Positions 33,982-57,521 of a stretch of DNA of 64,000 nt are shown piece by piece. The translations under genes and the position numbers were made by a program. The DNA is taken from sequence record NC_129898.1; one strand, written 5' to 3'. The DNA is from a phage. The notes under the pieces were generated by a model that saw only the letters and a list, made by a program, of their open reading frames with translations, did no database searches and had not been told where the DNA came from. Every line of letters starts with the position of its first letter. Positions within the stretch are counted from its first letter, which is position 1.

Positions 33982-34743
33982 TTACAGTTCCATAAAGTTT
34001 TCTACGATGTCAATGAATGTTTTATCAGAGAAAGCGTCAACCGCCCCGTTAAACCAAACTGGGATGCCGCGATCCTCATACTGGTAAATGTCACTACGTG
34101 AAATGCCATTCTCCCCTAAATGCTGTGAGTCGTATTTGTTAACGATCAGTAGTTTAGTCCCCTTATTACAGGCAGGGAATAGCTCCCAGTTAAAATTGAT
34201 AACTGTGTTGGAGCACCCTACAAGGATAACCATATCATTGCTCGTCAGAGAAGTCAACAGGTCATACATGTCTACATACTTTGGAGCTACTTCTCCGAAG
34301 AACACTACATTAGGCTTGACCCAAGTATACTCGCTTGCATCTACCTCAGAGTATCCAATGTCTTTAATGACGTCATTCCCTTCATCATCCTCGTAGACTA
34401 TTTCTGGCAAATATCCGTGGACATGTAAAATATCTTCATGTTTTACACCAGCACGCTCCAGCAAATCATCTACATTGGTGGTCAGGTTGATCACACGACC
34501 AGACCAGCGGGAATACCATTCAGCTATCCGGAGATGTGCAAGGTTAGGATCAACACTGCCCAGAGCTACACGCCGTGCATTATAAAAGTCATGCACCTTA
34601 TAGTAGTTCTTGGCAAAGGTGTGGATGTTACACACCTCATCGATGCTGAAATTCTCCCACATTGCAGTGCCACCAGATCGGAAAGTTGGGATACCAGATT
34701 CAGCGCTCAAACCAGCACCGGAGATAATGATCAGTCGTCGCAT
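33982..34743 (-). CDS. Sir2-family (sirtuin-like) NAD-binding protein lacking zinc-ribbon cysteines
   Basis: GAGLSAESGIPTFR, PNLAHxxIA, TTNVDDL and HG motifs in canonical order; no CxxC...CxxC after the HG. Confidence 0.7.
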   Translation of the reverse strand: MRRLIIISGAGLSAESGIPTFRSGGTAMWENFSIDEVCNIHTFAKNYYKVHDFYNARRVALGSVDPNLAHLRIAEWYSRWSGRVINLTTNVDDLLERAGVKHEDILHVHGYLPEIVYEDDEGNDVIKDIGYSEVDASEYTWVKPNVVFFGEVAPKYVDMYDLLTSLTSNDMVILVGCSNTVINFNWELFPACNKGTKLLIVNKYDSQHLGENGISRSDIYQYEDRGIPVWFNGAVDAFSDKTFIDIVENFMEL

Positions 34744-34751
34744 AAGTGTCC

Positions 34752-35102
34752 TCAGTAGATGTTTTGTTTAATTTCTATTCCAAACTTTTTAAACGAGTCA
34801 GCAGCAAGCATGAATTTACGAGCCGCTGATGGGTTAGAAGTATGCACGAAAATCTTCACGTTGTCAACTACAGGAGGCTTACCAAATACAAATTTTTCCT
34901 CCAGTATGCAGAAGCAATCGTATCCTTCAAAAATTTCTCCCAAGTCGCTGTCAAAATGCCACTCAGAAACGCGTCTATATAGCTTTCCCTTGTCATTAAT
35001 GAAATCCATGAACTCAGAAGAACTCTTTAGCCAAAGAGCGTCTGGGAGCCCATAATTTGACGGATCTCTCAAATCATCTAGCCACACAATCAGCTTCTTC
35101 AT
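34752..35102 (-). CDS. hypothetical protein
   Basis: 116-aa ORF. Confidence 0.45.
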   Translation of the reverse strand: MKKLIVWLDDLRDPSNYGLPDALWLKSSSEFMDFINDKGKLYRRVSEWHFDSDLGEIFEGYDCFCILEEKFVFGKPPVVDNVKIFVHTSNPSAARKFMLAADSFKKFGIEIKQNIY

Positions 35103-36034
35103 TGCATATAGTCCTCGTTGTGGAAATAGCAGTCAAGTATCTCACGGCGTTCCTGCTCCAGGAGGCAATTCCACACATCTTCTGTGTAGTTTCTACGAAT
35201 GAAGTTTACCATGCCGTAAAACTCTTCGTCAACACGTTTAAAGATATCATCATCCCAAATCTTCCAAGCTCTACCCCTCATTACGACCTTCCGTGCCAGA
35301 TAGTAGGGAGACTTGATCTTTAGTTGCAGGTCATAAGGGTAGTAAGGCTTACGGATCATATACCCTTCGCCCCTTGTTTCTGCAGCCAACTCTTTTGCAT
35401 AGCTGAACGGAATTTCACGCACAGTGTGAGGACGTTTTGCACCAAGGTATTTGGCAATACCGTCTAAAGCTGCTTCTGGTAGCATTATTCCAGAATCATT
35501 GTATCGGCAACCGATCAAATAGGCACCATGATCTTCCTGAACAATATGCGGGTCTGAAGGGTGACAAATTTCAAACATGAATGTCATGTTTTCATGGCCC
35601 ATAACCTTCTTGATAAGATCTAAATTACCACATTGCTCCTGGATTGTTTCCTTTGCGAGGTTACAATATGGAGAATCAAGAGACCCTGTTGTTGAGAACA
35701 ACAGTTCACCTTTGTGAGATGATACCACACCAAGGAATCCGTTCTTTTTCTCTACCGCCGTCACAAGTTTATTGTCAGGCAGGTTGGTGGAATTTTCTCC
35801 CAAGTTAAACACTTTTGTGAAGGGCCATGCCACAACATTTCCTTCATTACCGACAACAATTCCTCGGCACTCTAGTAAACGCGGAGACAAATGCCATAGA
35901 TTGTTGTAAAATACTTTTCTGGCATATTTATAGATCTTTAACCCAAGATCTGGATAATACCGACTGGTTACAAGACCTTTATTCACTAAATCATCTGCAT
36001 TAAAATACTTCATCATACATTCCTCGTTTGTCAT
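35099..36034 (-). CDS. ligase-family nucleotidyltransferase, probable RNA ligase
   Basis: Motif I VEKKNGF (KxNG, no Arg at +5), motif IV EGYMIRK, motif V LKIKSP; 311 aa; a separate DNA ligase exists at 31342..32625. Confidence 0.55.
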   Translation of the reverse strand: MTNEECMMKYFNADDLVNKGLVTSRYYPDLGLKIYKYARKVFYNNLWHLSPRLLECRGIVVGNEGNVVAWPFTKVFNLGENSTNLPDNKLVTAVEKKNGFLGVVSSHKGELLFSTTGSLDSPYCNLAKETIQEQCGNLDLIKKVMGHENMTFMFEICHPSDPHIVQEDHGAYLIGCRYNDSGIMLPEAALDGIAKYLGAKRPHTVREIPFSYAKELAAETRGEGYMIRKPYYPYDLQLKIKSPYYLARKVVMRGRAWKIWDDDIFKRVDEEFYGMVNFIRRNYTEDVWNCLLEQERREILDCYFHNEDYMQ

Positions 36035-36077
36035 TTTGTCACTCTATCTTGCCACACAAATAAACTAGTGTCAACAC

Positions 36078-36106
36078 TTGAAATGAACAAAAGAGTTATG
36101 TATACT
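36078..36106 (+). promoter_or_regulatory. sigma70-like promoter for the plus-strand kinase operon
   Basis: TTGAAA (36078-36083), 17-nt spacer, TATACT (36101-36106); RBS GGAGG before ATG 36135. Confidence 0.55.
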
Positions 36107-36134
36107 ACCATTAAAATTAAAACGGAGGATTACT

Positions 36135-36545
36135 ATGTCTAAAATGCTATATATCGTGCGTGGTCTACCAGGTTCTGGCAAATCAACACTGGCAAATGCA
36201 CTATCTTTAGAGGGGCTGTACCCACATTTTGAGAACGACATGTTCTGGTACGACGACGATGGAAATTACAACTGGGATGCAAGTAAAGTAACACTTGCAG
36301 CAAAATGGTGCAAAGATAACGTAGAAGATATGATGCGTATGGGATACGACCGTGTCGTGGTAAGTAATACGTTTACAAAAGAAAAACATGTGCAAGAATA
36401 TGTTGACATGGCAATCAGTCATGGGTATAGTTATACTGTGATCGTGGTTGAAAACCGCCACGGTAATAAGAGCATTCATGATGTTCCAGATAGGGTTGTG
36501 GACCGTATGGAGCGTGAGCTTAAAAACTGCATTAAACTAAAATGA
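36135..36545 (+). CDS. P-loop kinase (polynucleotide-kinase-like)
   Basis: Walker A GLPGSGKST near the N-terminus; 136 aa; operonic with a metallophosphoesterase. Confidence 0.6.
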   Translation: MSKMLYIVRGLPGSGKSTLANALSLEGLYPHFENDMFWYDDDGNYNWDASKVTLAAKWCKDNVEDMMRMGYDRVVVSNTFTKEKHVQEYVDMAISHGYSYTVIVVENRHGNKSIHDVPDRVVDRMERELKNCIKLK

Positions 36546-36552
36546 GGGATGT

Positions 36553-37107
36553 ATGAAATATTTTGTAACAAGCGATACACACTTTCTCCACCAGCGAGTC
36601 ATGGAGTTTGATTCATGTCAAAAACACAGATCTCAGTATGATCACAATCTTGACAGTATGAACGAAGGAATCATTGCAGAGTGGAACTCTGTTGTATCAC
36701 CAGAAGACACTGTGTTTCACTTGGGCGATATTGCATGCACTAAGGATAAGAATATCAACAACTTATTTCCAGATATTCTAAATATGTTGAACGGACATAT
36801 TATTCTTGTTCGTGGTAACCATGACACAAGGACGACTGTCAGAATTATGAAAGAGTTCGGTAATGAGGTTGTAGATTATTACGAGCTTCGCCACAACAAG
36901 AATTTGATCTGTATGAGCCATTACCAGTTTGCAAAGTGGAACAGAAAGCCTCACGGATCAGTCCAACTGTTCGGTCATGCTCACGGAACCACACAGCAGT
37001 TGTTTGGCAGGCAGTTTGATGTCGGTTGGGATGTGTGGGGGAGACTCTTACCATTAGAAGAGGCATACCGTATTGCAATGAGTCTTGCTATTGACAGCGG
37101 GGAGTAA
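36553..37107 (+). CDS. calcineurin-like metallophosphoesterase
   Basis: SDTHF (DxH), LGDI (GD), GNHD, GHAHG motifs in order. Confidence 0.75.
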   Translation: MKYFVTSDTHFLHQRVMEFDSCQKHRSQYDHNLDSMNEGIIAEWNSVVSPEDTVFHLGDIACTKDKNINNLFPDILNMLNGHIILVRGNHDTRTTVRIMKEFGNEVVDYYELRHNKNLICMSHYQFAKWNRKPHGSVQLFGHAHGTTQQLFGRQFDVGWDVWGRLLPLEEAYRIAMSLAIDSGE

Positions 37108-37154
37108 TCCCTGCTATTTTAAAGAAAATTGCCACACAAGGAGAATCAGGAGAT

Positions 37155-37505
37155 ATGAAAGAGGAGGATAAGCTGCCATACCTTAAAGTCCCATTTGGAA
37201 TACTGTCTATGTCAAAAGTTTTGAATGATACAACTGGAGAGGTTGTTGTTCTTGACTTGTATGACAAGATCGTATACTGCTACCTGCACAACTGGTATAA
37301 GCTTGGAGGAAATTCACGCTTCACACCCAGCACAAGGAAAATTGCAGCAGATGTTGGGATAAAGAAAACAAAAGCAGCAGCGTGCGTTAAAACTTTAGAA
37401 TGTGCAGGAGTGGTTGAAATATCCACACAAGGGAGAGGTAAAAGATGCACATTTTCCAAAGTTTTGCCACCAGAAGAGGTTATTCGAATGTCAACAACTG
37501 GTTAG
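37155..37505 (+). CDS. helix-turn-helix DNA-binding protein candidate
   Basis: STRKIAADVGIKKTKAAACVKTLECAGVVE HTH-like segment; 116 aa; immediately upstream of the palindrome array. Confidence 0.45.
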   Translation: MKEEDKLPYLKVPFGILSMSKVLNDTTGEVVVLDLYDKIVYCYLHNWYKLGGNSRFTPSTRKIAADVGIKKTKAAACVKTLECAGVVEISTQGRGKRCTFSKVLPPEEVIRMSTTG

Positions 37506-37580
37506 ACCAGTAAAAACTTAAATATCTGTACTATAAGGATTCGTATGTTTTATGTCCATCCAAGAGCAGAGGGTAGTAAC

Positions 37581-37661
37581 TGTCCGTGATACGGACACTA
37601 CTGTCCGTCACGCGGACACATCTGCCCGTAATACGGACACTAACTGTCCGCAATACGGACA
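37581..37661. repeat. array of four 17-bp palindromic operator-like sites at ~21-bp pitch
   Basis: TGTCCGTGATACGGACA (37581-37597), TGTCCGTCACGCGGACA (37602-37618), TGCCCGTAATACGGACA (37623-37639), TGTCCGCAATACGGACA (37645-37661); half-sites TGTCCGT/ACGGACA. Confidence 0.7.
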
Positions 37662-37800
37662 CATAAAGAATATAACTAAAATAACTAAATAATAAAAAAA
37701 AATAAAAGATCTAGTAATTATGGTACTAAAGTACATATACTTAACTTATGTAGAATATACTAGATCCTAAGTACCATGTTTTAAATTTATTACTTACTAT

Positions 37801-38160
37801 TGGTAGTGTCGGCCCTTCATTGGCACTCGCCTACGAGGGGCGAGATGCCGGGCCTCCATAGTGCACACAATGACAGGAGTGCATACATGCAGGACTGTTA
37901 ACATGTGTGGGAGCGAAGCTATAGCGCAGGCCAAAGGCCGAGCACTAATGTGGACCACCGACGAAAGCTTGCCAGCGCCGTAAGGAGTCGGTTGAGAGCC
38001 TCCCGCGCGAGTTTAGTTAAAGTTTATGTGTGGAAACGGACAGGAAGGCCCCTAAATCGCCACACAGCTGCGTAAACTATACCAAGTAAGGCAATCGCAC
38101 CAGTTTGATAGAAAAGCTCGTTACAAAGCGATACAGTGAGTTTTTCTATAACTTGAAGAG
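37801..38160 (+). ncRNA. GC-rich ORF-free structured block (candidate non-coding RNA or leader)
   Basis: No ORF >=60 aa on either strand; nested helix GGCCC/GGGCC, GGCA/TGCC, CTCGCC/GGCGAG at 37811-37854. Confidence 0.25.
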
Positions 38161-38169
38161 GAGGCAGTT

Positions 38170-38748
38170 ATGAGTTCACGCAAAGATGACCGCGAAAAGA
38201 TTGCAAAACGTTATCAGAATGAAGAACAGATGGAGAAAACTTTCAAGTGGAAGCCAGGTTTCCAGCGTAATCATTCTAACGCTCGTGATCGTAAGCATCC
38301 GGATAAGTGGCTAACACCGCCAAATGATGGCATGCAGGTTGGTGATGAGAAGGAGCTATCGCCTGGAAAAGATGGCAACTACATTCGCACTAAGGACGCT
38401 GGTCCAAAGGATGACAGCTATCTTGTAGATAAGGTTCTTGATGGTATTGATGTAGATGTTGACACCACACGGAACTTTTTTCTTGGGTGGTATCGCACAG
38501 GTTTTTTCGACATCAAGGCCATTCGTCGTGTTTGTGATATTAAAAAGTCTGCATATGATGACGACTCGTTACATCGCACCCTGAGGCAATATTCAGAAAG
38601 ATATGGTCATCCGGTTATCACTCTTGACGATGTTGACGAAGTGATGTATCATGCAGAGGTTGTTGCAGGCAGATTTGGTGATGCATATCTTGATATCCTT
38701 TCTGCAAACGATGAGGTAATGTTGAATAAGATTTACTACGAACGTTGA
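38170..38748 (+). CDS. hypothetical protein
   Basis: 192 aa; GAGGAGG RBS upstream. Confidence 0.55.
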   Translation: MSSRKDDREKIAKRYQNEEQMEKTFKWKPGFQRNHSNARDRKHPDKWLTPPNDGMQVGDEKELSPGKDGNYIRTKDAGPKDDSYLVDKVLDGIDVDVDTTRNFFLGWYRTGFFDIKAIRRVCDIKKSAYDDDSLHRTLRQYSERYGHPVITLDDVDEVMYHAEVVAGRFGDAYLDILSANDEVMLNKIYYER

Positions 38749-39266: not shown

Positions 39267-39553
39267 GGTTGTTTTCGTGTATCATGATGAATATCCAATT
39301 TAAAGATGAATTTGATGGCTTTATCTCCGGATGCTTTGAAACAGGGTTCGGAGAATGCTGAGTTCCCATTAGAGGGCTTGATAGTGCACCACACTTAAAA
39401 TGGTAGGGGCAGCCAGCACATGACGATGTGACCCCAGCCAACCTGTAATAAGGTCGAGCCAAAGCGCGGTAATGGGTCTCTGGTAACCCACTTGTTGGGT
39501 CTTGTGGTCCAGGACGCTGGGCAAGTCGCAGGGAATACCACCCTGCGGCGAAC

Positions 39554-39599
39554 TTGACAATCAGTATTTGCCGTGATAAAATCCACCTATCACGTGATA
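39554..39599 (+). promoter_or_regulatory. sigma70-like promoter with overlapping 12-bp palindrome
   Basis: TTGACA (39554-39559), 17-nt spacer, TG-n-TAAAAT (39574-39582); perfect palindrome TATCACGTGATA (39588-39599). Confidence 0.55.
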
Positions 39600-39610
39600 A
39601 TGGAGGAAAC

Positions 39611-39949
39611 ATGGCGGATACAACTAAAAAGCGTCGCCGTAGAGGCAGACCTCTGAAAGAGGAGTCCAACGCCATTCAGCTAGAGAAGAACATTCTTGAT
39701 ATGAAGGAATCTTTTATAGCGATGGTTCCAGAAGCTCACAAAGTTTTAAGAGAGCTGATGTTGGATCCGAAAACCAAGCAAAATATTCGTCAAAGCATTG
39801 CAGAGTATGTTCTTGATAAGGCAGACCGAATGCAGGAAGAATATGATGAGATGTTTGGTGAAGAGGAAGAGGTGGTAGTAGAAGAGGCTGAAAAACCAGC
39901 ACCTTTTATGCCATTTACCACAGAAATACAGCCTGTTAGCAATAGCTAA
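39611..39949 (+). CDS. hypothetical protein with Arg-rich DNA-binding N-terminus
   Basis: ATG 39611 with GGAGG RBS; MADTTKKRRRRGRPLK then acidic C-terminus; possible small terminase or regulator. Confidence 0.5.
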   Translation: MADTTKKRRRRGRPLKEESNAIQLEKNILDMKESFIAMVPEAHKVLRELMLDPKTKQNIRQSIAEYVLDKADRMQEEYDEMFGEEEEVVVEEAEKPAPFMPFTTEIQPVSNS

Positions 39950-40045: not shown

Positions 40046-40117
40046 GCCCTGTTAGCTTAGTGGATAAAGCAGCGGCCTTCTAAGCCGTTGACACTGGTTC
40101 GAGTCCAGTACGGGGTG
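40046..40117 (+). tRNA. tRNA-Arg (anticodon TCT)
   Basis: Acceptor GCCCTGT/ACGGGGT, D-stem GCTT/AAGC, anticodon loop CTTCTAA, T-loop TTCGAGT, CCA encoded. Confidence 0.8.
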
Positions 40118-40250
40118 CCAAGTTCTTTTTAATGTAGCTTACTTTAGCAGAGTAAATCTTCGGCAAGTGGCGGTAACCACTTTACCGATACCTCATAGTT
40201 AGTGGTGAGAACACTAGCTATTTTAAAAAGAATTTAAATATTAGTATTTA

Positions 40251-40335
40251 GGTGAGTTAATTCCGTAGGGGTAGCGGGGCAGACTGTAAATCTGTTATCA
40301 TTGCGATTCGGGTGGTTCGACTCCATCACTCACCA
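40251..40335 (+). tRNA. tRNA-Tyr (anticodon GTA), long variable arm
   Basis: Acceptor GGTGAGT/ACTCACC, anticodon loop CTGTAAA, T-loop TTCGACT, discriminator A, CCA encoded. Confidence 0.75.
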
Positions 40336-40452
40336 CCAAATTTATATTTTTAAATGCATAAATCATACAGATAATGGCATTGATATTTATCGTCGTTTAT
40401 ACTAGTCACTAACTGCTCGAAAATCAGTGTCATTATCAGTATTGTTTATAAA

Positions 40453-40540
40453 AGAGGGTAGGGAGCAATGGTGCTCAAGCGGTCTTGAAAACCGTCCCGT
40501 TGAGGATGACTCGATGATGGTTCGATTCCATTATCCTCTG
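40453..40540 (+). tRNA. tRNA-Ser (anticodon TGA), long variable arm
   Basis: Acceptor AGAGGGT/ATCCTCT, anticodon stem GCGGT/ACCGT with loop CTTGAAA, T-loop TTCGATT, discriminator G. Confidence 0.7.
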
Positions 40541-40640
40541 CCATATTGTTGACCTTGTAATTAAGCGAAAGCCGGAAGCAGAACCGGATTATCAAATGTT
40601 ACAGTCGTCATCGCCGACTAGCCACATGGTCAACATATTG

Positions 40641-40737
40641 CGCTAGGTAAGCCCTTTGGCAAGGGCGAGGATTTTTAATCCTGAAAATAGACGAGGTAGT
40701 CGTTGAATACATAGATGGTTCGATTCCATCACCTAGC
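40641..40737 (+). tRNA. atypical 97-nt tRNA-like element (anticodon loop TTTTTAA, possibly UUU)
   Basis: Perfect acceptor GCTAGGT/ACCTAGC, D-stem GCCC/GGGC, canonical T-arm GATGG-TTCGATT-CCATC, but ~30-nt variable region with ACGA-GGTAG-TCGT hairpin. Confidence 0.35.
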
Positions 40738-40743
40738 ACCTTT

Positions 40744-40816
40744 TGCTGATGTAGCACAATTGGCAGTGCAATTGATTTGTAATCAATAGGTTGCAGGTTC
40801 AAGTCCTGCCATCAGC
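40744..40816 (+). tRNA. tRNA-Thr (anticodon TGT)
   Basis: Acceptor GCTGATG/CATCAGC, D-stem GCAC/GTGC, anticodon stem ATTGA/TCAAT with loop TTTGTAA, T-loop TTCAAGT. Confidence 0.8.
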
Positions 40817-40820
40817 ACCA

Positions 40821-40892
40821 TGGCCCTGTAGCTGGAAGGTTCAAGCAAGCGACTCATAATCGCCAGACGGTGGTTCAATTCCACCCAGGGCC
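40821..40892 (+). tRNA. tRNA-Met or Ile2 (anticodon CAT), elongator-type
   Basis: Acceptor GGCCCTG/CAGGGCC with paired 1:72, anticodon loop CTCATAA, T-loop TTCAATT. Confidence 0.7.
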
Positions 40893-40907
40893 ACCAAATT
40901 ATAAATA

Positions 40908-40981
40908 CTCCGCGTAGCTCAGCTTGGTAGAGCGCCTGATTTGGGATCAGGAGGTCGAGTGTTCGAATCACTCCGTGGAGA
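40908..40981 (+). tRNA. tRNA-Pro (anticodon TGG)
   Basis: Acceptor CTCCGCG/CGTGGAG (C1:G72), D-arm GCTCAGCTTGGTAGAGC, anticodon stem CCTGA/TCAGG with loop TTTGGGA, T-loop TTCGAAT. Confidence 0.8.
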
Positions 40982-41030
40982 CCACCTTTAGTTATACTTT
41001 AAACATATACACACAAAAGGAACCTTTAAA

Positions 41031-49803: not shown

Positions 49804-49856
49804 AAATTGTTGCTTTTGATGTATCTTTGTGGTAAAATACATTAGTGAGGAATATA

Positions 49857-50321
49857 ATGCTAAAGGTTAAATGTCAAACTAGGTTCAACCTAAAGCGTTT
49901 AGATCGCTTTTACAAAGACCTTGTGAAACTAGAAAGCAAAACAATAACCTACGGCTTTTATGATGAACCTCACCCGTCAGGCTTAAATATGGCAACATTG
50001 GCAGCTATTCACAACTTCGGTTGGAACGGGCTGCCTGTTCGCAATTTCATGGAGACGGCCTTTGCATTTCACAGCACGCAACTGCAGACCTTGACAGAAA
50101 AATTGTTGAGAGCTATGGCTAGAGGATCAAGTGCAGAGGCTGTTCTTAAGCAGATGGGGGACACAGGGGCCAAAGCTATCCAGTTTGTTATTGAGGCTGG
50201 GCAGTTTAGTAACCCTACTGTTAGTGAGAAGTGGGCACAAGAGAAGGGCTTCAACGAGGCTATGCGGCATTACGATGTGCTGCTGGAATCTGCAACCTTT
50301 AAAATTGGACAGCAAAAATAA
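49857..50321 (+). CDS. hypothetical structural protein
   Basis: ATG 49857 with GAGG RBS. Confidence 0.5.
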   Translation: MLKVKCQTRFNLKRLDRFYKDLVKLESKTITYGFYDEPHPSGLNMATLAAIHNFGWNGLPVRNFMETAFAFHSTQLQTLTEKLLRAMARGSSAEAVLKQMGDTGAKAIQFVIEAGQFSNPTVSEKWAQEKGFNEAMRHYDVLLESATFKIGQQK

Positions 50322-54190: not shown

Positions 54191-56530
54191 ATGGCTACAA
54201 ACAAAATAGTTGCCACAACAGTCAACAAGATTGGCTTTGAGATAGAGAACTCCTCCTACAAAAAAGCTGTAGAGAAAATTCGCAGTATTGGGAGGGAGTT
54301 CAGGAAACTGGGCGAGGATTTTAACTCAGCCAACCCAATGAGTAGATGGCAGGCAGTGGCTGTTAAAACCCAGCAAACAATGCAGCGGGTTGCCAGACAG
54401 CAATCTCAGGCAAATGCTAAACTTCACAGGGAGAGCGTAGCACAAGCCAAGAAAGAGGCTGCAGTAAGGGCTGCAATAGAACGTAGGGAAAACGCAAGAC
54501 GTAAACAGGCTGTAGGTAATCTTACCGCTAAAAATCCAGAAATGGCCAGGATGCGTAAGTTCTACCAGCAGCAAGCTAAAGAGGCCAAAAAGGCTGCCAA
54601 ATCTACACCAGTGTCTTACGGCGGTTATAAGGCACCAAAGGCAAGAGTTTTGGCTAATGCCAAATCTTTCAAGTATATCCCAGGTAACCCTAATATGGGT
54701 GGTGTGGCTTCCGACCCTAACCTTGTGAAAGCTCAGACAGCCGCTATGAATCGTTATCATAGACAGCTAAGAAGAGACAGTAAAGCTGGTATGGATAATA
54801 AGCTTATGTCTGATCGTGAGGCAAGGAGAACCCACCTCTACAACTCTGCGATAAGACTTTCTGCCAAGTATGGGGCCGGATTCCGTGGAAGCTTGGCAGG
54901 ATACTCAGAGTTAGAGTCCAGGTTTGCTCGCGGGGAGATGAAAAAGTCAACCTTTAACGCCCACCTGTCAGCTCTGCAGTCTGGATTTAAAAGCGCCACC
55001 AGCCAAACGCTTACACTAGGTGATGCCATGAGGGACTTACGTAGGTCTGTTATTAATGCAACAGCTGCGTATACTGCTTTCTCTGGATTTACTGCTGTGA
55101 ACAGATCTGGTCACATGATGGAGGGGGCAAGTGCTGCTCTTACTGCTGTTACTGGAGATCCAAACAAAGCCAACAGTGAGGTTGCGTTTGTCCAGCAAGA
55201 GGCTATGCGTCTTGGTTTTGATCTCAAATCTGGTCTTCAAGGTTACGCCCAGATGGCGGTAAACGCCAAAAACCAGATGACAAATCAAGAGGTGCATGAG
55301 CTATTCTCTGCATACTCACAGTATGCTGCTGCTTACGGTGCCGATGAGGTAAAATACCAGCGTGGCATCATGGCAATCCAGCAAATGCTCGGTAAAGGAC
55401 AGGTAATGTCCGAAGAACTGAAGCAACAACTTGCTGAAGCATTGCCTGGTGCATACGAACCTTTTATCAAAGCCACCAAAGAGGCTTTTGGTCTTTCTGA
55501 ACTATCCATGGATCAGTTCATGGACATGATGAAGAAAGGTGAGGTTAAAACAGCCAAGATCATGAAGTATGTGGCTAAGTACATGAACGAGGCATCTGCA
55601 GCTGGTTATGAAAGAATGCAGAAGTCTAACGTACTGGCAGAAAACAGGCTGAAAACCTTCATCGAACTATCTCGTCAGAAGCTGTTCACCCGTTGGGCTG
55701 ATGAATTAACAGAGTTCTATTATACACTGATTCGCACAGGTGAGACTTTGCAATTTGTGTGGGATGCCTCTGGTGATTTTGTTAGCGGGTTTGTGAGAGG
55801 CCTCAACTGGGTAGTTGGTGAACTAAACAATACCATAGTCAAGATCCGCATGTTTTTCCTTGAATGGGGGATTAAATGGGGATTCATAACAGCTAAGACG
55901 AAGGAATATTCTGAAGAGCTTAATGACACCTTTAGCTATGCTAAATGGGCAGGGTTTGCTGCTGCCATCATGCTGGTAGTGAACGCCCTGACAAAAGGTT
56001 TTGTCATGGCATCTATGCTTGTAAAAACCTTCAAATTCCTTAGTTCTATAAGAGGCGCAGCTGGAGCAGCAGGTGCAGGTGCAGCTACCACAGAAGGATC
56101 TGGTGGTGGTGCGGCAGGAAAAGGGGGAGGTGGCCTCAAGACACCTGGCGGTAAAGTTGGCCTGCTTGGGAAGCTTGGTATTATCGGTACAATATTAAGT
56201 GCCGGGGAGTTATTTAATGACCGTTTCAACCCGCTGAGTGAGAGAAATCAGCAACTGGATACTATCAGCGATATGATTCGCAAAGATATCATATCGGGAG
56301 GTAACGGGTTTGTTGATCCTTTGGACACCTTACCGGGAGGGACTCTTCCGTTGCCGGGTGGTCCTGGTTTTGCTTCTCAATTAAGAACTATGGAAATGCT
56401 ACCTTTAGAGATCAGTGATGGCAAAATCACGATTTCAATAGATGAGGGGGAGTTTAGCAAAATACTTGATGCAAAACTTGAGTGGGAGAATAACAAAGAT
56501 ATTAACTTTATGTCAACAGATCTTTGGTAA
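54191..56530 (+). CDS. tail tape measure protein
   Basis: 779 aa, Ala/Gln/Lys-rich helical N-terminal half, hydrophobic segment and Gly-rich tract (GAAGAAGAGAATTEGSGGGAAGKGGGG); follows the chaperone pair. Confidence 0.75.
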   Translation: MATNKIVATTVNKIGFEIENSSYKKAVEKIRSIGREFRKLGEDFNSANPMSRWQAVAVKTQQTMQRVARQQSQANAKLHRESVAQAKKEAAVRAAIERRENARRKQAVGNLTAKNPEMARMRKFYQQQAKEAKKAAKSTPVSYGGYKAPKARVLANAKSFKYIPGNPNMGGVASDPNLVKAQTAAMNRYHRQLRRDSKAGMDNKLMSDREARRTHLYNSAIRLSAKYGAGFRGSLAGYSELESRFARGEMKKSTFNAHLSALQSGFKSATSQTLTLGDAMRDLRRSVINATAAYTAFSGFTAVNRSGHMMEGASAALTAVTGDPNKANSEVAFVQQEAMRLGFDLKSGLQGYAQMAVNAKNQMTNQEVHELFSAYSQYAAAYGADEVKYQRGIMAIQQMLGKGQVMSEELKQQLAEALPGAYEPFIKATKEAFGLSELSMDQFMDMMKKGEVKTAKIMKYVAKYMNEASAAGYERMQKSNVLAENRLKTFIELSRQKLFTRWADELTEFYYTLIRTGETLQFVWDASGDFVSGFVRGLNWVVGELNNTIVKIRMFFLEWGIKWGFITAKTKEYSEELNDTFSYAKWAGFAAAIMLVVNALTKGFVMASMLVKTFKFLSSIRGAAGAAGAGAATTEGSGGGAAGKGGGGLKTPGGKVGLLGKLGIIGTILSAGELFNDRFNPLSERNQQLDTISDMIRKDIISGGNGFVDPLDTLPGGTLPLPGGPGFASQLRTMEMLPLEISDGKITISIDEGEFSKILDAKLEWENNKDINFMSTDLW

Positions 56531-56569: not shown

Positions 56570-56636
56570 CGGTGTTGTAAAAACGGCTATTTTATGATAC
56601 AATATTTAGATGGTATCGGAGTGTCCTGGAGAGGTT

Positions 56637-57521
56637 ATGCCAAGCAATATAGTTGATGAAAAAGACCTGTACAAGCCTCAAGAGGTTAAATCTCCAAAGG
56701 CTGAAAAGGCAGAACAGCAAACTGAAAGCGATGTAAAGTACACTATGTTTGTCAGCGGTCTTAACTATGGTGGTCGCAATACGGAGATGAAGGGTAAAAA
56801 CTTTACTAACGATCTTGCCATCATCTTCGATCAGATTGAGAACTACTCTTTCAAACATACTGTTGATAAGACTGATTTTGCGGTGGAAGATAAATCTACC
56901 CTGTCAGACCACGCTGTAATTAAAGATGGTGTATTTTCTTTTACTGGTAGGGTAAATACATCACCACATATAATCTATGAGCAAAACTACATTGACAGGA
57001 ATACTGACTCTAAAAACCCTGCAGCATCTATGCGACCGGGCGCTGCACTGGAGGCTTTGACTGAGATCATTAATAAGCGCCAGTTGGTTTCTTTGGTTAC
57101 CGAGGAAAGACTCCTTGAGAACTACATCATAACCAGCCTTTCTGCCAACAAGTCTGTTGGTGAAGGTGCTGCGATGGTGTTTGATGTAGAACTTACAGAG
57201 TTCCGCACATTCTACTTGAACAAGGTTGTTAATGCAACTGTATACAGCAACCCTAAGAAAGTAGGCAAGACCCAGCAAAAAGGTGCTGTCAACGACTGTA
57301 AGAATGGCAGTAACGTAGGTAACAAGAGGGACACAGGGGCATTTGCAGACACTGCCTCCACAAATGCCGCAGAAGAGTGGCAGCCATACAAATCTATGAT
57401 GTGGACGGATGAAAACGGTGTTACCCAATCCGCAGCAGATTGGTATTATCAGGAATATGGAAGACCTTCTACCATAGTCCCATCTGAGCAGGGAAACTAC
57501 AACAAAGTTAACGGAAAATAA
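56637..57521 (+). CDS. tail/baseplate protein candidate
   Basis: ATG 56637 with GGAGAGG RBS; first gene after tape measure. Confidence 0.5.
   Translation: MPSNIVDEKDLYKPQEVKSPKAEKAEQQTESDVKYTMFVSGLNYGGRNTEMKGKNFTNDLAIIFDQIENYSFKHTVDKTDFAVEDKSTLSDHAVIKDGVFSFTGRVNTSPHIIYEQNYIDRNTDSKNPAASMRPGAALEALTEIINKRQLVSLVTEERLLENYIITSLSANKSVGEGAAMVFDVELTEFRTFYLNKVVNATVYSNPKKVGKTQQKGAVNDCKNGSNVGNKRDTGAFADTASTNAAEEWQPYKSMMWTDENGVTQSAADWYYQEYGRPSTIVPSEQGNYNKVNGK

Follow-up and report, generated by a model that had tools for sequence, protein, structure and literature searches.

What is the function of four tandem palindromes that lie between two genes of a large coliphage? The window analysed here is a stretch of 64,000 nucleotides (NC_129898.1), and the palindromes follow closely on a small gene whose product has a helix-turn-helix (HTH)-like segment. 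The initial annotation, made from the sequence, described them as phased binding sites, either operators or replication iterons, and named the adjacent protein as the candidate binder. The phage belongs to Vequintavirus (rV5/FV3-like coliphages), a group widely used in O157 typing and biocontrol and represented in the BASEL collection, and the replication origin of rV5-like phages is so far unmapped. The sole mapping attempt that we found in the literature, a skew analysis in the rV5 genome paper, failed: its only conclusion was that the skew switches follow the direction of transcription, and the origin was not located (PMC3606486).

Organisation of the locus

The 1.1 kb around the array matches 118 phage records at 90–99% identity, all of them Vequintavirus (rV5, FV3, slur16, Murica and others). 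Escherichia phage EPFV3-03/2025 is closest, with 99.1%. At this locus, ~95% identity to E. coli Vequintavirus genomes is also found in eighteen records that carry the label 'Campylobacter phage' (MG0656xx), which makes this host label doubtful. A further record, CP057073.1, is filed as an E. coli plasmid; its length of 137.5 kb is that of a Vequintavirus genome, and it matches the GC-rich block described below at 93.9%.

Transcription diverges near the array. To the left of ~36050, genes are read from the minus strand, and to the right from the plus strand, which places the switch 1.1–1.6 kb left of the array locus. Computed over the window, cumulative GC skew falls to a clean V-shaped minimum at 36077, ~1.5 kb from the array. 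In order along the plus strand, the locus consists of a predicted sigma-70-like promoter, TTGACA-18-TATTTT (37091–37120; 10 of 12 consensus matches), at the position equivalent to promoter P76 of the rV5 annotation; the gene for a 116-aa winged-helix protein (37155–37505); the array; an AT-rich tract; and a GC-rich block. An invariant inverted repeat with 12-nt arms (38108–38149), contained in a segment (38101–38169) with a pairwise difference of 0.029, lies in the leader of a gene for a 192-aa protein (38170–38748, plus strand; phrog_12226). This gene is genus-restricted and is given here as context downstream of the module.

The surroundings have several features of their own. An RNA-repair-like gene set, comprising an Rnl1-type RNA ligase (minus strand), an AAA_33 kinase-like protein and a metallophosphoesterase, is found beside the candidate origin at 35099–37107, and a Sir2-like gene at 33982–34743. 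A second GC-rich (up to 60%) non-coding block occupies 39350–39560, upstream of ORF 39554–39949; it has no Rfam match and a weak folding z-score of −1.1. In the tRNA cluster at 40046–40984, ARAGORN and Rfam differ on two members, 40251–40335 being called by Rfam only and 40453–40543 by ARAGORN only. The predicted tRNA at 40642–40740 is called with a four-base anticodon loop, and an irregular 'tRNA-OTHER' is annotated in the equivalent cluster of phage naam. A tRNA-Tyr, annotated in naam and FV3, is not called in the window.

The repeat array and the AT-rich tract

The array (37577–37662) consists of four tandem units repeating at 21, 21 and 22 bp, each with a 17-bp dyad; we propose that they are iterons. 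It begins 75 nt past the TAG stop codon (37503–37505) of the winged-helix gene. The dyads had been described as four copies of TGTCCGT-N3-ACGGACA. All four are present, but only unit 1 (TGTCCGTGATACGGACA, 37581–37597) is exact; unit 2 (TGTCCGTCACGCGGACA, 37602–37618), unit 3 (TGCCCGTAATACGGACA, 37623–37639) and unit 4 (TGTCCGCAATACGGACA, 37645–37661) have one mismatch each. The units are dyad-symmetric, and their 3-bp spacers (GAT, CAC, AAT and AAT in units 1 to 4) contain no poly-A tract. The measured distances between dyad centres, 21, 21 and 22 bp, agree with those first reported and correspond to 2.03 helical turns per step, so that all four sites lie on one face of the helix. Within each dyad the half-site centres are 10 bp, or one helical turn, apart. 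The array thus has the form expected of an initiator site, namely at least three direct repeats of ~17–23 bp that are helically phased.

The observation that nothing in the window is comparable holds well. Tandem Repeats Finder gives the array a score of 103; the second score, 54, belongs to the adjoining AT-rich tract, and the rest of the 64 kb scores 39 or less. A scan of the window for the motif with up to two mismatches returned 4 matches against 0.04 expected, a number reached by none of 100 shuffles. An additional ACGGACA half-site had been pointed out at 38036–38042. It exists, but at chance frequency: outside the array the heptamer occurs 6 times, against 4.2 expected for the entire window, and the position reads ACTGACA or ACTGGCA in five of nine relatives. 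It was rejected as an extra binding site on the basis of this frequency and non-conservation, and attributed to chance.

Directly after unit 4 comes a tract of ~140 bp with 19% GC (~37661–37800), which we propose to be a DNA unwinding element, as expected beside the initiator sites of an origin. In its first half the top strand is A-rich, with ATAACTAAA repeats at 37672–37697, and there are two GATC sites, at 37708 and 37763. By nearest-neighbour stability, this is the least stable DNA in the 64 kb, whether windows of 60, 100 or 140 bp are used. At 100 bp its value is −100.4 kcal/mol, compared to a mean of −133.0 (sd 5.7) and a runner-up of −112.2.

The array and the AT-rich tract have no match across 5,426 E. 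coli genomes. Searches for DnaA-box and IHF consensus sequences found none in the locus, and the window-wide counts are at chance level. Scanning IMG/VR with a single unit gave scattered lone palindromes in unrelated contigs and was uninformative. A two-unit pattern scan of genome contigs gave nine matches, all non-enterobacterial and mostly from high-GC-type bacteria and metagenome-assembled genomes (MAGs), of which two are real arrays at 22-bp spacing. An Alphaproteobacteria MAG (L122, 3729–3820) has four TGTCC-N7-GGACA units at the 3′ end of an HTH_36 gene and an integrase-like ORF close by, and a Gemmatimonadaceae MAG (L121, 2924–2985) has three, one of them identical to unit 4 of the window. 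Since these lineages are unrelated, the analogy is weak.

Conservation and non-coding status

A motif search in related phages, as the initial annotation had suggested, found the palindromes at the homologous loci. All 11 full-length copies examined in Vequintavirus have four units with identical spacing; the four-unit copies include 8 other Vequintavirus genomes, at the same relative positions, and the metagenomic contigs L134 and L209. A twelfth copy, L181, sits at the end of its locus, with three units visible. In an alignment of nine genomes, the mean pairwise difference is 0.026 for the array and 0.035 for the AT-rich tract, compared to 0.053–0.094 for third codon positions of three neighbouring genes. 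The array therefore evolves 2–3.6 times more slowly than these positions, and purifying selection acts on both array and tract. The outer hexamers TGTCCG/CGGACA are nearly invariant, variation being found at the innermost arm position and in the spacer. A 22-bp spacer directly 5′ of the array (37555–37576) is hypervariable: among phages otherwise 96% identical, the mean pairwise difference here reaches 0.295, or three to five times the value for third codon positions.

The probability that the array is a chance or coding repeat, such as a tandem peptide repeat in ORF 37552–37692, is negligible. This ORF would yield a VRDTDT-like repeat, and one record annotates a small CDS at the array. However, it has an in-frame stop in seven of the nine genomes, which already refutes a coding function; unit 4, offset by 22 bp, which is no multiple of three, breaks the peptide repeat; and the N-terminus of the ORF falls in the hypervariable spacer. 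Chance is opposed by the 0.04 matches expected. The small ORFs of the GC-rich block, including rV5 gp074, are broken in some genomes or poorly conserved. The entire interval of 660 bp after the winged-helix gene is non-coding.

The winged-helix protein

The 116-aa protein is a candidate origin binder. It is annotated as 'putative transcriptional regulator' in GenBank and as a replication initiation protein in RefSeq, and it matches phrog_12838, 'replication initiation protein', with an E-value of 4e-76. Its scores are just below the Pfam thresholds for DUF6945 (27.1 bits, cutoff 28) and HTH_36 (23.1 bits, cutoff 25), and at E ≤ 1 Pfam gives no match to PF06970 (RepA_N) or Phage_rep_O. The family is isolated: there are five close relatives among 5.8 billion proteins, an exhaustive HMMER scan gave 11 hits, and neither tblastn nor the search of those 5.8 billion returned relatives below 86% identity.

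The best match among PDB sequences is 4RO3 (E 1.8e-6), which is the closest solved structure as well as the closest sequence relative, at ~30% identity. According to Barth et al., 4RO3 is the N-terminal domain of RepA from the Vibrio cholerae PLE (PMC7145576). PLE RepA is a RepA_N-type initiator whose binding sites are semi-palindromic iterons and which PLE needs for its replication (PMC7145576, PMC8263062). The N-terminal dimeric winged-helix domain with a DnaD-NTD-like fold, by which RepA_N initiators are recognised, is matched by the 116-aa protein. There are many winged helix-turn-helix (wHTH) repressors among its structural neighbours; the closest relatives by sequence and by full-length fold are, however, initiator domains and not repressors.

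The resemblance is limited to the N-terminal domain. The protein ends just past the wing and a short helix, and the C-terminal host- or replisome-specific domain of RepA_N proteins is absent. A full-length homologue was not found in the window. The downstream 192-aa protein was considered as the missing C-terminal domain of a split Rep and rejected, having no similarity to the plasmid C-terminal domains.

In the loci of more distant homologues (L112–L116), AGGTACA repeats accompany an AT-rich patch between divergent genes, with no tandem array; these loci are only suggestive. Several distant wHTH homologues (P0012, P0014, P0017–P0019), and the 303-aa protein of the plasmid L126 (10592–11503) treated below, end in acidic tails, such as ...DAPF, ...EPF, ...NPPF or ...SAIPY, that resemble the C-terminal tail of SSB. 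In another, P0011, the wHTH domain is fused to a GIY-YIG nuclease, as in ICP1 Odn.

Exchange of protein and repeats

One relative is a divergent Vequintavirus-like metagenomic contig of 137,418 bp (L131, identical to L135; IMGVR_UViG_3300010279_000001). Its flanks are retained, the phosphoesterase gene being 91% and the GC-rich block 87% identical to the window at the DNA level. Between them, both protein and repeats are different. The protein has 143 residues and is 27% identical to that of the window (pairwise E 2e-8; profile probability 97%). The repeats are five 18-bp dyads, TGATRCA-N4-TGYATCA, which start at the stop codon of the protein and are spaced at 33, 21, 34 and 22 bp, and a 22% GC tract separates them from the GC-rich block. 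This allele is missing from all 50,697 phage records searched.

In this contig the protein and the repeats have been exchanged as one cassette, which supports the view that they are a cognate binding pair, and hence the proposal that the adjacent HTH protein is the probable binder of the array. The initial annotation had counted absence of the motif from homologous loci as evidence against such binding. The motif is indeed lost in L131, but because the protein changes together with it, the loss supports binding instead. An initiator gene that is linked to its sites and co-varies with them in specificity is expected at an origin, and here the gene is 75 nt upstream of the array and is co-replaced with it. 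By itself, however, the cassette swap does not separate an origin from an operator.

The GC-rich block

The AT-rich tract is followed by a GC-rich (~57%) non-coding block on the plus strand (37801–38011), which is structured. A hairpin at 37822–37849 has 2 compensatory pairs relative to the plasmid NZ_CP020521.1, described below. A second stem, in which 37957–37962 pairs with 37987–37992, encloses an invariant loop of ~24 nt, GAAAGCTTGCCAGCGCCGKAAGGA. This stem reads ACCGAC/GTCGGT in the phages and GCTGCC/GGCAGC in the plasmids; three of the six pairs are compensatory and 100% are paired, whereas slid controls have no compensatory changes and far lower pairing. In one phage, a G-U intermediate is present on the plus strand; this favours an RNA read from that strand.

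Rfam 15 contains no family that matches the block or its plasmid copy at gathering thresholds, and relaxing the limit to E ≤ 5 brings up nothing but noise (rli43, with 18.8 bits where gathering requires 100). Single-sequence folding gives weak z-scores of −1.9 (plus strand) and −1.5 (minus strand). RNAalifold on nine near-identical phages found no compensatory pair, covariation being seen only after the plasmid copies are added. A scan of metagenomes with an 18-mer of the loop gave 110 matches, of which only 7 are real elements (Vequintavirus contigs and contigs of 13.9 and 15.5 kb), with no added diversity. TGTGTGG(G) motifs occur at 37905 and 38028, and in the plasmid copies many repeats of this motif precede hairpins. 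The block could be a leader or primer RNA, a former of R-loops or a single-strand initiation site; a packaging signal common to phage and satellite is a weaker alternative.

Related plasmids

Partial matches to the GC-rich block, at ~85%, are found in circular E. coli plasmids of 13.2–13.7 kb from five strains, and in two metagenomic contigs. The plasmids are NZ_CP020521.1 (L126), NZ_CP035869.1, NZ_CP178698.1, CP148565.1 and NZ_CP043822.1, which is trimer-sized; L126–L130, L150 and L158 are entries of this group. On one strand of NZ_CP020521.1, six 23-bp units with the dyad CGGAAATATTTACCG are followed by an AT-rich stretch with three 36-nt (~40-bp) repeats, a homologue of the GC-rich block, small ORFs and a 303-aa HTH protein. 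Plasmid pE275a_13 has five 23-bp units with a different dyad.

The HTH proteins of four plasmids (288–306 aa), together with a 121-aa protein, have an N-terminal domain of ~100 residues that is homologous to the protein family of the window (hhalign 95%, E 3e-8), and some of the plasmid proteins reach the HTH_36 threshold. The 121-aa protein is an NTD-only paralogue encoded by pE275a_13 separately from its 306-aa protein. The 303-aa protein of NZ_CP020521.1 is divergent, and is linked to the others only by weak similarity to the HTH proteins of the other plasmids. As a caveat, L126 and L127 have a repeat type in common, yet their HTH proteins align over part of the length, with an identity of only ~29%.

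The annotation of NZ_CP020521.1 has no other recognisable replication gene, and we therefore infer that the module is its only visible replicon. The plasmids also encode a major capsid protein, a baseplate-like protein 50% identical to window ORF 56610–57521, a hypothetical protein 44% identical to ORF 49845–50321 and a tape measure protein 25% identical to ORF 54191–56530. They may be satellites or miniaturised phage-plasmids. A literature search found no description of them.

Function of the locus

We hypothesise that the array is the initiator-binding (iteron) part of an rV5-like replication origin, with the 116-aa protein as its binder. We assign this reading, which is drawn from sequence comparison, a probability of about 0.68. 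It is suggested by the four phased dyads with their cognate, initiator-like winged-helix protein, by the extreme unwinding element that abuts the array, by the adjoining divergence of transcription, and by the occurrence of the homologous module in plasmids. The initial proposal of phased sites had left open whether they are operators or iterons. Iterons are favoured because the closest characterised relative of the protein is the iteron-binding domain of PLE RepA, because the DNA bordering the array is the most easily melted of the window, and because the homologous modules sit in plasmids without another candidate replicon.

Initiation could proceed as follows. The 116-aa protein would dimerise like its RepA_N-type relatives, as homology suggests, and each dimer would bind one 17-bp dyad, in keeping with the cognate pairing supported by the co-replacement in L131. 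Four dimers, placed on one face of the helix by the geometry of the sites, would bend or wrap the DNA, and the strain would open the adjoining 140-bp, 19% GC tract, which is readily melted. The phage's own helicase-primase and DNA polymerase would then be loaded; rV5-like phages encode a DNA polymerase, a primase-helicase and a PIF1/RecD-like helicase (PMC3606486). Because the protein lacks the C-terminal recruiting domain of its plasmid and PLE relatives, recruitment must come from elsewhere, and we speculate that another phage factor may be involved, or else the GC-rich block, which might serve as a primer or leader RNA or as a single-strand initiation site.

An operator array, to which the 116-aa protein would bind cooperatively as a transcription factor, is in our view unlikely. 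The protein might halt read-through transcription that starts at its own promoter, or regulate a promoter within the AT-rich tract, and thereby time expression of the GC-block RNA and the downstream early genes. Such a function would fit the GenBank label, the bare winged-helix domain with no recruiting domain, the wHTH repressors among the structural neighbours, and the position of the array between co-directional genes and upstream of a structured, leader-like RNA; cassette swapping of the L131 type is also typical of immunity modules. Operators should, however, overlap or flank the promoter that they control. A scan of the plus strand from 37560 to 37800 found no sigma-70-like promoter in or beside the array, phage-specific promoters being outside the reach of such a scan. 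The sole weak sigma-70-like site near the array is on the minus strand (37558–37530), with a non-conserved −35 hexamer, and the motif has no copy at the promoter of the winged-helix gene. The nearest relatives of the protein are initiator domains, as noted above, and operators would leave unexplained both the extreme AT-rich tract and the presence of the module in plasmids that have no other replicon.

It is also conceivable, but distinctly unlikely, that the locus is an origin activated by something other than the 116-aa protein. The latter, a paralogue that has only the NTD of full-length Rep proteins, would then be a negative or competitive origin binder, acting in copy or timing control, handcuffing or the exclusion of related plasmids or satellites, while initiation would depend on transcription, an R-loop or another factor via the GC-rich block. 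The phage protein has no C-terminal domain, and pE275a_13 encodes both a 306-aa protein and an NTD-only paralogue; in ICP1 Odn the fold of the RepA NTD has been turned to antagonism (PMC8263062), and the plus-strand G-U pairing in the GC-rich block is that expected of RNA. But with no full-length homologue found in the window there is no obvious activator to compete with, and the phage dyads are absent from the plasmids and from E. coli genomes. A site for some other protein, such as a packaging (pac) site, a partition centromere or a host-factor site, is very improbable. Phased repeats are known in centromere-like and pac sites too, and in principle a packaging signal might account for a non-coding block that a phage has in common with satellite-like plasmids; it is, however, the GC-rich block that is shared and not the array, the plasmid repeats being different, and neither terminase genes nor partition ATPase genes are near the array, whose adjacent protein resembles initiators.

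Within the origin reading, we tentatively suggest, as a possibility that is still rather doubtful, that Vequintavirus and the ~13-kb plasmids with capsid and tail genes have one replicon design in common. It would combine an exchangeable cassette with a conserved structured element that provides the priming or replisome-entry site, the phage initiator being reduced to a bare DNA-binding domain. The cassette may be a RepA_N-like winged-helix domain with its own dyad iterons, and the element may be a previously undescribed RNA or single-strand element beside the unwinding region.

The label 'replication initiation protein' and one 'repeat_region' annotation (in the record of phage naam) are already in the databases. 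In the literature searched, we found no description of an rV5-like origin, of its iterons, of the cassette swap or of the structured block. The bare-domain initiator, the conserved structured element and the plasmid relatives could be new. The locus narrows the origin hypothesis to a 600-bp fragment and one 116-aa protein. If the hypothesis is true, a large lytic coliphage uses RepA_N-type, PLE-like initiation, initiator and iterons move together as an exchangeable cassette, and the protein is a natural minimal origin-binding domain with a simple 17-bp dyad. The novel structured element links the phage to small phage-related plasmids, and may open up an unstudied helper-satellite or phage-plasmid relationship.

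Comparison with known systems

The lambda origin consists of four imperfect 19-bp inverted-repeat iterons beside an AT-rich tract (PMC7466680). The phage locus is similar, with four tandem imperfect-dyad iterons (17–19 bp in the two systems) and a flanking AT-rich tract, which unwinds in lambda (PMC7466680) and is proposed to do so in the phage. Lambda O is, like the 116-aa protein, phage-encoded with an N-terminal winged helix (PMC7466680), DNA binding by the 116-aa protein being inferred. There are also clear differences. The lambda origin is inside the O gene, whereas the phage array begins 75 nt after its gene; O has two domains and recruits P-DnaB, whereas the phage protein has only 116 residues; and there is no Phage_rep_O match, the fold being closest to RepA_N-type N-terminal domains in a comparison that did not include O. 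The conserved structured GC-rich block after the AT-rich tract is a feature of the phage locus, unlike the lambda origin.

In PLE, RepA alleles and origins are exchanged as modules, which is reminiscent of the swap in L131. PLE RepA presumably dimerises to bind its iterons, without which there is no replication (PMC7145576, PMC8263062). To replicate, PLE relies on the SF1B helicase of its helper phage (PMC7145576), and rV5 likewise encodes a helicase, of the PIF1/RecD-like kind (PMC3606486). PLE RepA has the C-terminal domain that the phage protein lacks, and the PLE iterons are three ~30-bp repeats converging on a poly-A tract, unlike the phage array. Moreover, PLE is a chromosomal satellite, whereas the window is from a lytic phage.

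The staphylococcal RepA_N initiators (pSK41, pTZ2162; 4PQL, 4PT7, 4PTA, 5KBJ) give no significant sequence match to the phage protein (E ~1), which has neither their C-terminal domain nor a Pfam RepA_N match. In the staphylococcal RepA_N plasmids, the iterons are inside the rep gene. RK2 oriV combines, like the phage locus, iterons with an unwinding element, and in RK2 it is Rep that opens this element (PMC4980987). RK2-type origins differ in their Rep family, and DnaA boxes and IHF sites are absent from the phage locus. The iterons of such plasmids are asymmetric and bound by monomers, whereas the phage units are dyad-symmetric, implying binding by a dimer.

Finally, the ~13-kb plasmids differ from the phage in encoding 288–306-aa proteins with a C-terminal domain, in their repeat sequences, and in their order, which is repeats, GC-rich block, gene; a long AT-rich tract between repeats and GC-rich block is seen in L126 only. 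They resemble the phage in combining a wHTH N-terminal domain, tandem dyads at a spacing of about two turns, and a structured GC-rich block.
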